NCBI RefSeq assembly: GCF_963921235.1
Contig: NC_086108.1
Coordinates: 64,234,001 to 64,298,000 of the forward strand
Length of the DNA: 64,000 nt
Direction: 5' to 3'
Origin: Mobula hypostoma
Taxonomy: Eukaryota
Under the pieces are notes generated by a model. It made no database searches. It was not told the DNA's origin and saw nothing but the letters and a program-made list of their open reading frames with translations. The position numbers and the translations under genes were made by a program. Positions within the stretch are counted from its first letter, which is position 1, and every line of letters starts with the position of its first letter. Positions 17,193 through 62,341 of the stretch are shown here, piece after piece.

Positions 17193-17744
17193 CTCAGCCC
17201 CCATCAGGGTGTGCGTGGATCCCAGATACGTGGGCACTAAGTATCACTATGTGTCCAGGCTCTACCTATCTCCCTGGCTGCAAAAGATGGATCTGGCCCC
17301 TTTCTTGTGCAACACCCCCATCAGCTAGTCGTTGCCGCCATACCTGTCCTTCGTAGAAAAGTTCTTCCAGGTCAATGCCTTTGATCACAAGGCCATCAGG
17401 CAGTGGTTCGAACACAATGTCCTGCAGGTGAAGGATGAGATGGACTCAGTGGGGTGGTTCCCTGAGCAGACCGTCCAGTACGTCTGGCAAATTGCCTCAT
17501 TGCCAGAACTCACCAACAGGCACCAAGACCTCGCCTGGCTGGTGGTGAGAGGTGCGCTCCTTGTCAGATCCTTCCTGTATGCCCGGAACATCGTCTGCAC
17601 ACCCCACCGCCCACAGGAGGACTGCAGTGAGACGGAGACAATGACTCACCTCCTTGCACACTGTGGGTTCACGAAGAAGGTGTTGAGGAGGATGGAAGGG
17701 ACGGTGTCGAGATTCATGCCCAGAAGCAGCGTAACCGAGGACTC

Positions 17745-17990
17745 ATCTGTAGGAAGAGGTGCAGTTGACGTTTCAGGCCGAGACCCTTCGTCAGGACTAA
17801 CTGAAGGAAGAGTGAGTAAGGGAGTAAGGGAGTAATCCCTTACTCACTCTTCCTTCAGTTAGTCCTGACGAAGGGTCTCGGCCTGAAACGTCAACTGCAC
17901 CTCTTCCTACAGATGCTGCCTGGCCTGTTGCGTTCACCAGCAACTTTGATGTGTGTTGCTTGAATTTCCAGCATCTGCAGAATTCTTGTT
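17745..17990 (+). mobile_element. Short Penelope-derived fold-back element with hammerhead motifs on both strands
   Basis: 14-bp target duplication GTAACCGAGGACTC (17731-17744, 17991-18004); perfect 80-bp inverted repeat 17744-17823 and 17836-17915. Confidence 0.92.
17861..17896 (+). ncRNA. Minimal type I hammerhead ribozyme motif (mirror copy on minus at 17763-17798)
   Basis: AGTC-CTGACGA-AGGGTCTCGGCCT-GAAAC-GTC-AACT: CUGANGA and GAAA core with GUC triplet. Confidence 0.85.
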
Positions 17991-18647
17991 GTAACCGAGG
18001 ACTCCCTGATTTACAAGCTGTTCCCGGGGACGCACACAAAGACCAACATCTGGTGCTGCTGGCAGATCATCAGCTCTGTGAAGGACACTCTTTGGTCGGC
18101 CCGAAACTTGGTGATCTACCAGCACATGGAGATGTCCATGGCTGAATGCTGCCAGCTGGCACATTCTCACCTCCAGGAATACGTGCCGAGGGATGCACTC
18201 AAACTTGGTGCAGCCACCACAAGAGCCCGGTGGGGAAGGACCACAGTTTATGGTTTGTCATCCGCGGGAGTGGGAGGGGTTGGGTGGAGAGGATATACCC
18301 CTCATCAGCGGTGTGGATAGATGAATCAACATGGTGCCACAGGAGTGGCTGGAAATGTAGGAAGATATAGACCGTAAAGGAACTTCGGTAAAGAAATGAG
18401 AGTCAACGCCTGGCTTTTTATTGTAAATAAGTTTTATTCTTGACTAAAGTTTGAGAGTCAATGAATGATTAATTGTAAACATCTTTATTTTGAATAAGGA
18501 CTGAGAGTCAACGCATGATTTATTGTAAATAACTTTATTTATTGAATAAGGACTCAGTCTATGAATGATTTTTTTGAAAATGACTTTATTTTGTAATATT
18601 TCTGAATAAAGTGTATTTTTGGGGGAAAAAAATTACACTCGGCCCCC

Positions 18648-24909: not shown

Positions 24910-25575
24910 ACACAGACACGAGGAAATCTGCAGATGCTGGAAATTCAAGCAACACACACAAAAGTTGCTGGTGAACGCAGCAGGCCAGGCAGCATCTATA
25001 GGAAGAGGTACAGTCGACATTTCGGGCCGGGACCCTTCATCAGGACTAACCGAAAGAAGAGATAGTAAGAGATTTGAAAGTGGGAGGGGGAGGGGGAGAT
25101 CCGAAATGATAGGAGAAGACAGGACAGGAGGGATGGAGCCAAGAGCTGGAAAGTTGAATGGCAGAAGAGATACCAGGCTGGAGAAGGGAGAGGATCGTGG
25201 GATGGGAAGCCTGGGGAGAAAGAGAAGGGGGGGAGGGGAGCCCGGAGGGTGAAAAGCAGGCAAGGAGTTATAGTGAGAGGGACAGAGGGAGAAAAAAGAG
25301 AAAAAAGGGGGAAAAAATAAAAGATATATTTATAAAAAATTAAATAAACAAATAAGGGATGGGGTGTGAAGGGGAGGAGGGGCATTAACGGAAGTTAGAG
25401 AAGTCAATATTCATGCCAACAGGTTGGAGGCTGCCCAGACAGAATATAAGGTTTTGTTCCTCCAACCTGAGTGTGGCTTCATCTTGACAGTAGAGGAGGC
25501 CGTGGATAGGCATATCAACATGGGAATGGGACGTGGAATTAAAATATGTGGCCACTGGGAGATCTTGCTTTCTCT
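24910..25575 (-). mobile_element. Penelope-like element 3' part (endonuclease C-terminus, pyrimidine-rich UTR, hammerhead, terminus)
   Basis: Minus frame ...DMSIHGLLYCQDEATLRLEEQNLIFCLGSLQPVGMNIDFSNFR*; same terminus family as 17836-17990 and 62109-62265. Confidence 0.88.
25012..25047 (-). ncRNA. Minimal type I hammerhead ribozyme motif
   Basis: Reverse complement AGTC-CTGATGA-AGGGTCCCGGCCC-GAAAT-GTC-GACT with perfect AGTC/GACT stem I. Confidence 0.82.
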
Positions 25576-27392: not shown

Positions 27393-27759
27393 GACAAAAA
27401 AAGCTTTCAGAATAGCTGCACAGAATTTGAATGTAATCAATGATACAGATTTGACAGGCCTATGGAGTAGAGAGTCACCACCTTCCGAGTGAAGACATTT
27501 CTCCTCATCTCAGCACCAAATTGCACATCTCCTTTTTCCTTTTTCATAGGACCGCCTTTAGAATTGAGAATGACTGACTTCTTCTTTGGTTTATAGCAAC
27601 TGAGACCAGTATGGAACTTGTACTTTCTGCCTCAGGTGGGACAGAAGGAGCAGGTGAGCAGTTACTTTCTTGGGTGGTGCATTCCTTCCATAGAGCTCTG
27701 CTGTCAATACACAAACCCAAAGTTCTTCAAGAAAGTTTTGAATCCTTAAATCTTTGGGA

Positions 27760-27945
27760 GCAACACACAGAAAATGCTGAAGGGACTCAGCAGGTCAGGC
27801 AGCAACTATAGTGAGGAATAAATAATCGATGTATCGGGCTGAGACCCTTCATCAACATTAAAAAGGAAGGGAGAAGAAGCCAGAAACCAGACAGTAGGAG
27901 GAGGGGAAGGAGTATAAGCTAGCAGGTGACAGGTGCACAAACAGG
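27760..27945 (-). mobile_element. Degenerate Penelope-like terminus with a decayed hammerhead
   Basis: GCAACACACAGAAAATGCTG...CAGGTCAGGCAGCA...TCGATGTATCGGGCTGAGACCCTTCATCA. Confidence 0.65.
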
Positions 27946-57429: not shown

Positions 57430-60060
57430 AGGTGTAAGCACGGCGGCCACTGTTGGAGTCAGAGTTAGAATGGTCAGGCTTTGGCTCAATGGGCTTCAGT
57501 GAGAAAGGCAAGGTCTGTGTGTGACTCAAAGATTTCAGAGGAAAGGCACAGGTAAGAACAGGTGAGTTTTTTTATCGTCTGTAAATCATTAGTCCTTAGT
57601 TCAATGTAGGTAAGATAGTTAAGGTGGTGGAATGCTCCTCCTCTGAGATGTGGGATTTCAGAGTACCTGGCAGTCTCCTTGATGCCAAAGGCTGTGATGC
57701 ACATTGGCACTAATGACATAAGGGGAAGACGACCCACACATAGCATATAGGGAATTAGGAAAGAGGATGAAGAGCAGGACCTCCACGGTGGCAATCTCTT
57801 GGTGCCAGATGCTAGTCAGGGTAGGAATAGGATAATAGTACAGATGAATGAGTGGCTGAGGAACTGATGCAGGGGACAGGTACAAGATTGCACATGCACC
57901 AGAAAATCTGCAGATGCAGGAAGTCCAAAGCAACACACACAAAATGCTGGAGCAACTCAGCAAGTCAGGAAGCATCTATGGAAAATACTAAACAGTTGAA
58001 GTTTTGGGCCAAGATCCTTCTTCAGTACTGAAAGGGAAGGGGGAAAGTGCATGAATTAAAAGATGGTAAGTGAAACCAGATGGTGGGAAAGGTAAAGGGG
58101 GAGGGGCAGTTGCACTACTAATGAGAGACAATATCAGGACTGCACTCAGAGGGGACATAGGGTAGAACTCAAAAACAGGAATGGTGCAATCACTCTAATG
58201 GGATTGTACTACGGACACCCCAATATCCACAAGGACACCGAGGAACAAATATGTAGGCACATTATGATTTAAAAGCAATTTCCCTGATATAAACTGGGAC
58301 CTTCTTAGTGCAAATGGTTTTGCTGGGGAAGAACTTGTTCGGCACATCCAGGAAGGATTCTTAAATCAATATATAGATAGTCCAACAAGAGGCGGACTGT
58401 ACTAGAGCTAGTGTTGGTTTATGAGCTGTTTGTTTGAGCTGTTAGGGAACAGTAACCAGAACTCCTTAATCTTTTAAGATAGCTACAGATAAGCTAAACA
58501 CAGAGCTTATGAGAGAGTATTAAATTGGAGCAGGGCAAATTACAAAAACGTTAGGCAGGAACTAGGGAACGTTCATTGGGAACAGCTGTTTTTGGGCAAG
58601 AGCGCGTCCGACATGTGGAGAGTGTTTAAAGACCAACTGCACAGAGTATAGGACAGTTATGTTCCAGTCAGAAGGAAGGACAAGGATGGCAAGGTAAAAG
58701 AAACTTGGATGTTGAGGGAGGTATTGTAATGCTAGGAGTATTATGAACAAAGGTGATGAACTTAGAGCATGGATCAGTATATATCAGGATGTTTTAGCCT
58801 TTACGGGCATTTGGTTGAGAGAGAGGCAGGAATGGGTGTTATAGGGATAGGAATGGTCAAGAAGGAAAAGAAGTACGTAAACTTTTGGGGGCTCCAATCA
58901 AACAGAGTCCTGGAAGATTATACAGAAACCAGAAATGAACTCAAGAAATTAATTAGGGAAGTCAGGAGGGGCCATGAAAAGTCTTGGCAGGCAGGAATAA
59001 TGAGAATCCAAAGGCATTCGATACATAAAAGAGCAAGTGGATAACTAGGGAGAGGGTGAGACCACTGAAGTATAAAGGGTGGAATATTTGCCTGGGTGCA
59101 AAAGACATGGGTAAGGTCCTTAATGAGTACTTTACATCAGAATTTACCAAGGAGAAGGACGTGGAGGATAAGGAGATATGGTGCTGACAGTATTAGGGCT
59201 GGGGCATTTCAAAGTAAAGTTGGAGAAGAAGTTGAAACTCTTAAAGAGCTTTAAGGTGGATAAATCCCCAGGGCCTGATGGGATATATCCCAGCTTATTG
59301 AGTGAGGCGAGCGAAGAAATTGCTGGAGCCATGACCAATATCTTTGTGTCCTCTCGAGCCACTGGCAAGGTCCCAGAGGACTGGAAATTATCTACTGTTG
59401 TTCCATTGTTCAAGCAGGGGAAAGGGGATAATCGTAGAACCTGTAGACTGGTGAGTCTCATTTCAATAGTAGGGTTGCTGAGAGAATTCTTAGGAATTTA
59501 GCATTTAGAAAATAATGGCCTAATTAGGGAGAGTCAGCATGGCATTGTGCAGGCAAATCATGTCTTACTAAATAGATGAATTTTTTGACGATTTGACACA
59601 GGTGATTGATGAAAGTAGAGCTGTGGAAGTTATCTACATAGATTTTAGTAAGGCATTTGACAACGTCTCTTATCGGAGGCTCATCCAGAAGATTAAGATG
59701 AATGGGGTTCGTGGTAAATTGGCTGTTTGGATTAGAACTAGCTTGTCCATAGAAGACAAGGGACACTGGTTGAAGGAACGTCTGTGATTAGTGATGTTCC
59801 ACAAGCATCTGGACTGGGACCTCTGGTGTTTGTAATGTATATATATGACCTGGATGAAAATGTATATAGGTGGGTTATTAAGTTTGCAGATGAGCTAAAG
59901 ATTGGTGATGTTGTAGATAGCACAGATGACTGGCAAAGAATAGAGTAGGATATAGATCAGTTGTAGATATGGGCATAGAAATAGCTTAAGCTGGCCAACT
60001 GTGAAGTGTTGCACCTTGATAGAAATATTACACTGTTAAGGGTAAGATCCTTAATGGAAA
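57430..60060 (+). mobile_element. Decayed CR1 with 5' UTR and ORF1 remnant plus ORF2
   Basis: HIGTNDIG esterase-like motif near 57700; VDKSPGPDGIYPSLL, AVEVIYIDFSKAFDNV, KFADELKIG. Confidence 0.85.
57893..58110 (-). mobile_element. Degenerate Penelope-like terminus inserted in CR1
   Basis: GAAAATCTGCAGATGCAGGAAGTCCAAAGCAACACACACAAAATGCTGG...TTTTGGGCCAAGATCCTTCTTCAGTACT (decayed hammerhead). Confidence 0.7.
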
Positions 60061-62108: not shown

Positions 62109-62341
62109 GCAAACACGAGGAAATCTGCAGGTGCTGGAATTTCAAGCAACACACATAAAAGTTGCTGGTGGATGCAGCAGGCCAGGCAGCGTCTCTAGGA
62201 AGAGGTACAGTCAACATTTCGGGCCGAGACCCTTTGTCAGGACTAACTGAAAGAAGAACTAGTAAATCTCTTACTAGTTCTTCTTTCAGTTAGTCCTGAC
62301 AAAGGGTCTCGGCCCGAAACGTCGATTGTACCTCTTCCTAG
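62109..62341 (-). mobile_element. Second short Penelope-derived fold-back element with hammerhead motifs on both strands
   Basis: 14-bp target duplication GAATATTGAAAGAT (62095-62108, 62342-62355); 71-bp inverted repeat 62195-62265 and 62271-62341 with 3 mismatches. Confidence 0.92.
62292..62327 (+). ncRNA. Hammerhead motif with a core substitution (mirror copy on minus at ~62209-62244)
   Basis: AGTC-CTGACAA-AGGGTCTCGGCCC-GAAAC-GTC-GATT; CUGACAA instead of CUGANGA in both arms. Confidence 0.72.

Follow-up and report, generated by a model that had tools for sequence, protein, structure and literature searches.

The hairpin at positions 17731–18004 of the window (the whole 64,000-nucleotide stretch of Mobula hypostoma DNA that was analyzed) is a one-off, dead-end, 5′-truncated insertion of an abundant Penelope-like element (PLE). 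Its architecture, an inverted pLTR with a one-sided tail, is of an already known, published kind, and taken singly, the copy is ordinary. The value lies in the statistics of the family, which turn the question of PLE inversions into counts and provide sharp predictions for an existing in vitro system. These counts favor two-ended priming of reverse transcription over simple cDNA fold-back as the likely general mechanism.

Architecture of the hairpin and of its parent element

The insert is 246 bp long and is flanked by an exact 14-bp target-site duplication, GTAACCGAGGACTC (plus strand, 17731–17744 and 17991–18004); the final base of the left duplication, 17744, doubles as the first base of the inverted arm. 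The two arms (17744–17823 and 17836–17915) are complementary at 80 of 80 bp. When mapped on the parent unit, the inverted arm (17744–17823, minus strand) is an antisense copy of the pLTR stretch between ca. 80 and 158 nt before the family 3′ end. The sense arm (17834–17990, plus strand) consists of the final 157 nt of the pLTR, tail included, which in longer copies runs into RT/GIY-YIG coding sequence; it differs from the family majority base at four positions, one of them a subfamily allele. The tail (17960–17990, plus strand) is present on this arm only and measures 31 nt, compared with ca. 34 nt in the family. Between the arms lies a 12-nt spacer, GTAAGGGAGTAA (17824–17835), in which ca. 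10 nt are re-copied from the arm end (GTAAGGGAGT) and the AA is native to the right arm. The target duplication, the perfect inverted repeat and the slippage-type spacer described in the initial annotation were all recovered in this form. Its suggestion that a read-through transcript would form a long stem burying the hammerhead motif is borne out by the computed fold of the insert (−184.1 kcal/mol, z −23.4), which none of 200 shuffled sequences equalled.

The insert lies in the 3′-terminal part of an older LINE ORF2 (17329–18320, plus strand), which it splits; reading frames are present on both sides of it, and a zf-RVT match stays under the 27.5 cut-off (26.1 bits, E 1.4e-5). We take this LINE to be likely of the Tx1/L1 type. 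Tandem repeats of ca. 50 bp are present in its 3′ region (18391–18591). The window also contains an older hairpin of a sister subfamily (62120–62340, minus strand) with the same architecture, a tail ending in CTCGTG and an outer end at ca. 85, an older plain 5′-truncated family copy that extends into the end of the endonuclease coding sequence (24923–25560, minus strand) and two diverged relatives of the family (57904–58029 and 27759–27869).

A search with the final 38 nt of the parent family returned 29,661 exact matches in the 3.48-Gb genome and 0 for the control. The parent is a Neptune-type PLE with at least 29,661 young copies. RT is followed by a C-terminal GIY-YIG domain in one reading frame, as in EN+ PLEs; in a 500-aa frame (L087), RVT_1 and GIY-YIG are matched at E 1.5e-5 and 3.7e-4, both just under the curated cut-offs. 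DKG and YIDD motifs were recognized by eye in the RT, as were two cysteines between GIY and YIG (VIYCVRCSRCGLLYIG) and histidines downstream, i.e., a CCHH finger. The linker preceding the endonuclease, CKRNKCYTC, fits the CX2-5CxxC pattern that defines the Neptune and Nematis clades in PMC8557442; the Neptune-type label is proposed from this motif.

The longest unit, L141, spans 3,515 nt between two tails and has an 891-aa open frame. Its full-length structure (L141:341–4143) begins with a short leading hairpin (inverted arm 37–155), followed by a direct pLTR of ca. 160 nt, the body, the tail and a target duplication. Among the longer copies examined, none was fully intact. In L141, L142 and L144 a pLTR-tail continues into a further unit, i.e., the pLTRs occur in tandem. 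EN+ PLEs are described as carrying an inverted 5′-truncated copy and a one-sided tail of 30–40 bp (PMC8557442 and PMC3846280), and family insertions have a tail of this size at one end, an inverted 5′-truncated copy and a target duplication. The initial annotation was right about the Penelope-like origin and about a hammerhead motif in the pLTR. A different Penelope-like family, represented by locus L173, has the same hairpin-plus-tail architecture and turn position.

Predicted hammerhead motifs and variants shared by the arms

A motif scan located the hammerhead core that had been noted on each strand. The predicted minimal motif on the plus strand occupies 17861–17896, with the core CTGACGA...GAAACGTC at 17865, and that on the minus strand occupies 17763–17798, with the core beginning at 17794; their features match those given in PMC4209133. 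Stems were assigned by eye from the same features. The plus motif comprises stem I AGTC, the core CTGACGA, an extra A, stem II GGG/CCT and GAAAC-GTC. Cleavage is predicted after 17892, and a G>A change at 17893 abolishes the first pair of stem I, which is lost in both hammerhead copies of the hairpin, i.e., on both strands. Stem I is AGTC/GACT in 82 of 86 family copies and AGTC/AACT in the window hairpin, where the conserved core is present. No Rfam family reached the gathering score anywhere in the 64-kb window, and the 20 matches at E≤10 within 17700–18050 included no hammerhead family, the weak matches being generic miRNA hairpins.

In common with the minimal metazoan PLE hammerhead, as described in PMC4209133, the predicted motifs appear to have an extra base after position 9, a G10.1 pair, a palindromic 15.2–16.2 and no loop 3. 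In contrast to it, the young subfamily has G-U instead of G-C at 10.1–11.1, and the two motifs of the window lie on opposite strands and cannot make a tandem dimer. The same source reports that the minimal PLE hammerhead is inactive as a single copy and needs a same-strand dimer. The earlier idea that a ribozyme on either strand is the product of the rearrangement is not upheld: with no stem III loop, the reported need for a same-strand dimer and the first stem I pair lost twice, the arrangement would be a by-product. The second predicted hammerhead is probably a passenger, and the hairpin is not a two-strand ribozyme device. Non-LTR retrozymes, defined by same-strand tandem hammerhead repeats, were considered and rejected, the motifs here being inverted, one per strand.

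Both arms were said to share variants absent from the 25-kb copy and from the plus arm of the 62-kb copy. They do, but in the young subfamily most copies have GGCCTGAAA (83 of the 86 that cover the site), and only GTCAACT, a CpG transition found in 4 of 86 copies that disrupts hammerhead stem I, is rare. It is carried by both arms of the window hairpin, whose left arm is fully nested. A search for the lineage that donated GTCAACT gave two matches; the second, L145, carries it on a single arm, and no source lineage for the rare alleles of the hairpin was found.

The insertion population and the origin of inversions

Contig C1 (9.2 Mb) was sampled for its first 100 matches to the tail, an intact tail being required and a single contig end being covered. 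Since L038 and L039 mark opposite ends of a single structure, 99 insertions were counted. End distances are counted from the family 3′ end throughout. A head-to-head inverted arm is present in 54 of the 99 (95% interval 44–65%), which extrapolates to about 16,000 young hairpins genome-wide. Where a target duplication was detected in an inverted copy, its most frequent length was 14 bp (21 of 51). Each of the 29 family hairpins selected through their junction carries a single tail, the 30th locus belonging to another family.

On the 5′ side, the inverted arm exceeds the tailed arm by more than 10 nt in 22 of the 54 copies, falls more than 10 nt short of it in 12 and ends within 10 nt of it in 20; in 10 of 54, the excess is above 100 nt. 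The outer end of the inverted arm lies at 32–47 nt, just upstream of the tail, in 46 of 54 copies and is alike in every symmetry class (19/22, 11/12 and 16/20). The outer end of the window hairpin is near 80, and ends at 78–85 occur in 3 of 54 copies, all symmetric. Two solitary tail-less copies with target duplications of their own (L037 and L091) end at 34–35, which shows that an insertion can start from the proximal site.

In 22 of 54 copies, each arm has sequence absent from the other. One of these, L039, carries a second tail and probably arose by recombination. It follows that in such non-nested copies neither arm was copied from the other unless a deletion occurred later. The lengths of the two inner ends are coupled (short/short 34, long/long 18, mixed 2), and long pairs agree within 25 nt in 6 of 18 cases (expectation 0.94, p 1e-4); the left arm of L114, which is among these six, is chimeric. 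The arms match at 140 of 159 diagnostic sites, compared with 55% for random pairs. With L039 and L114 left out, they disagree at 3 of 71 diagnostic sites in short copies and at 34 of 188 in long ones, which is more than a single RNA predicts. Asymmetry tends weakly to be higher where the arms have diverged more (rho 0.31, p 0.036), a relation confounded by length.

Short 5′ ends cluster at 126–139 (38 of 63 ends), 144–148 and 154–161; they may reflect transcript starts or stops at a splice site or branch point. The base preceding the end is G in 18 of 46 testable ends, and position 132 is natively G. A small cluster of ends at 99–104 coincides with the hammerhead cut site, which is also a self-complementary word. 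We take the pyrimidine tract, CTCAC and TTCAG/TTAG seen by eye at 17834–17864 and in the family to resemble an initiator and a branch point with a 3′ splice site. No interpretable splice joint or transcript start was present in the contigs of four possibly-RNA runs. For the Penelope of D. virilis, an intron ending at the hammerhead 5′ end is described (PMC4209133).

We consider it probable that the window hairpin was made when both ends of a staggered target cut primed reverse transcription and the resulting cDNA ends were joined head to head. The endonuclease would make a cut with a 13–15-nt stagger, as the duplications suggest. One nick would prime at the distal start, giving the tailed arm; the other would prime ca. 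35 nt upstream (in the window hairpin, at a minor site near 80), giving the tail-less inverted arm, in agreement with the observed arm ends. As a rule, a single RNA would serve as template for both cDNAs, which would terminate at its 5′ end or close to it, a step to which the coupled lengths and common alleles point. The near-identical cDNA 3′ ends would then be trimmed and joined via microhomology with short re-copied inserts, as the junctions exemplify, the 12-nt spacer included. Polymerase-theta-type joining is a candidate for this last step. One junction, in L127, contains a 39-nt insert derived from sequence downstream of the tail, which points to an RNA template at joining. Zero-loop centers on self-complementary words, found in 10 of the 50 hairpins listed among those that turn near the position of the window hairpin and in 28 of the 32 that turn at the predicted cut site, are hard to obtain by intramolecular fold-back.

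Several features of the window hairpin itself speak against two-ended priming: the outer end near 80 is atypical, the left arm is nested, and the rare GTCAACT is common to both arms. Fold-back or arm-to-arm conversion explains the nested arm and GTCAACT more simply. The spacer sequence fits snap-back and annealing to an identical partner strand equally well.

The strongest competing explanation, which we nevertheless regard as unlikely, combines both processes: priming occurs at both nicks, but the longer of the two cDNAs then folds onto itself. The sense strand made in this way would pair with the second cDNA, and the inner portion of one arm would have been copied from the DNA of its counterpart. 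It accounts for the coupled inner ends without requiring one RNA, for the partial allele discordance in long copies (34/188), for the palindromic non-native junctions of L032 and L069 and for GTCAACT on both arms, and rare shared variants do tend towards the turn (by eye, ca. 15 sites). However, the zero-loop centers do not fit snap-back, and the discordant sites are not limited to the outer arm.

Somewhat less likely still is the scheme of the initial annotation, in which a nascent cDNA folds back and self-primes with slippage. To account for the family, it has to be supplemented with a halt of copying, or a cut, close to the border of the tail and with subsequent deletions at the center that create the asymmetry. 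It fits the window hairpin fully, including the nested arm and the identical arms with their rare variant, and a 2-bp stem with two re-primings could explain the spacer. Self-priming, on an antisense template, was inferred for such palindromes in PMC3846280, and resolution by the endonuclease, which would account for the tail, appears in PMC8557442. The 22 non-nested cases among the 54 inverted copies make fold-back of a single cDNA unlikely as the general mechanism, even though later deletions at hairpin centers could yield non-nested arms. In addition, the inverted arm of short non-nested copies stops at the 127–138 hotspot, as in plain copies, and solitary insertions end at the proximal site; the zero-loop centers again do not fit. 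Formation during retrotransposition stands, and fold-back may hold for the window hairpin, with its nested arm and shared rare variant, but probably not as the rule for the family.

For PLE integration in general, two-ended priming may be coordinated, a rule that we propose tentatively: a dimer would cut both strands and copy one RNA twice, one subunit always using the distal start and the other the proximal one, and the cDNA ends would be joined. If true, this rule would by itself account for the tail on one side, the inverted pLTR and the palindromes at the junctions, with ca. 16,000 young hairpins as its record. We found no statement of two-ended priming for PLE inversions in the literature searched, which covered the main texts of papers available without subscription; the accessible parts of bioRxiv 10.64898/2026.07.22.740005 and PMC12910113 contained nothing relevant to the inversion mechanism.

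The Mobula family shares with the EN+ PLE insertions described in PMC8557442 and PMC3846280 the head-to-head inverted pLTR, the one-arm tail, the target duplication, the palindromic junction and the tandem pLTR copies. It differs in that its arms are usually very short and that its copy number, extrapolated to ca. 16,000, allows junctions to be counted. The origin of the inverted structures is called undefined in PMC8557442, and where PMC3846280 inferred self-priming, the Mobula counts favor two primed cDNAs.

The in vitro system is that of PAc, the Poseidon protein of Anolis, which cuts and extends both target strands and initiates at two sites that delimit the tail; a dimeric form is predicted (PMC11167929). 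The two start sites, the cutting and extension of both strands and the hammerhead in the pLTR are common to both elements; the Mobula element has a CX4CxxC linker, which Poseidon lacks. No start-site difference between strands was reported for PAc, and the main text of PMC11167929 does not discuss inverted insertions, a text search giving only “inverted dT”.

In L1 twin priming, too, cDNA is primed from both target strands and a 5′ inversion results (PMC12016303, section 8). There, the second primer lies near the end of the first cDNA, with a median overlap, when present, of 12 bp. In the Mobula family, by contrast, the second start would have a fixed place, 35 nt away from the first one, with nearly complete overlap of the arms and hence a hairpin.

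Copy-specific junctions

The initial annotation regarded the hairpin as a mobile fold-back element, a reading that the data do not support. The exact junction of the window hairpin occurs once in the genome, and sister hairpins vary in turn, spacer, outer ends and target duplication. When the entire insert served as query, 80 matches were obtained; in the 30 loci fetched (27 distinct), spacers and target duplications differ. The inverted hammerhead architecture, for which a genome-wide search had been suggested, is recurrent even though the window junction is single-copy: 100 hairpins turn near the position of the window hairpin, 984 at the front edge of the hammerhead motif and 32 at the predicted cut site, counts that cover three narrow turn classes and come from patterns of differing stringency. 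The last two figures offer a genomic hint concerning self-cleavage of the motif.

A non-autonomous fold-back or MITE-like family was rejected, as it requires many copies with the same junction and ends; here the junction is unique and the ends vary. We also consider it very improbable that a non-autonomous hairpin element is transcribed and re-mobilized as a unit. Some junctions do recur, and two pairs in the sample (L083/L105 and L039/L052), 1.9 and 1.4 Mb apart, have a common junction. However, that of the window hairpin is unique, that of L083/L105 is limited to two copies in the whole genome, which looks like local conversion, and L170 and L178, although one of the recurrent junctions is common to them, carry different alleles and stop at different outer positions. 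An assembly artefact produced by read fold-back deserves practically no credence: although no contig piece from four DNA-type sequencing runs spans the locus, the target duplication is clean, the tail one-sided and the arms of sister copies diverged, and analogous joints are present in contigs of other runs (15 listed and 616 more).

Through this family, thousands of perfect hairpins have been scattered over the genome; both hammerhead cores and a short center are present in at least 984 + 100 of them. Such hairpins are a possible source of double-stranded RNA and rearrangement.

Members of the pairs L083/L105 (C1:3842163 and 5740649, 1.9 Mb apart) and L135/L136 (1.4 Mb apart) have a rare junction in common and different flanks, and local gene conversion between copies is the likely cause. 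L135 has tails on both arms and no target duplication.
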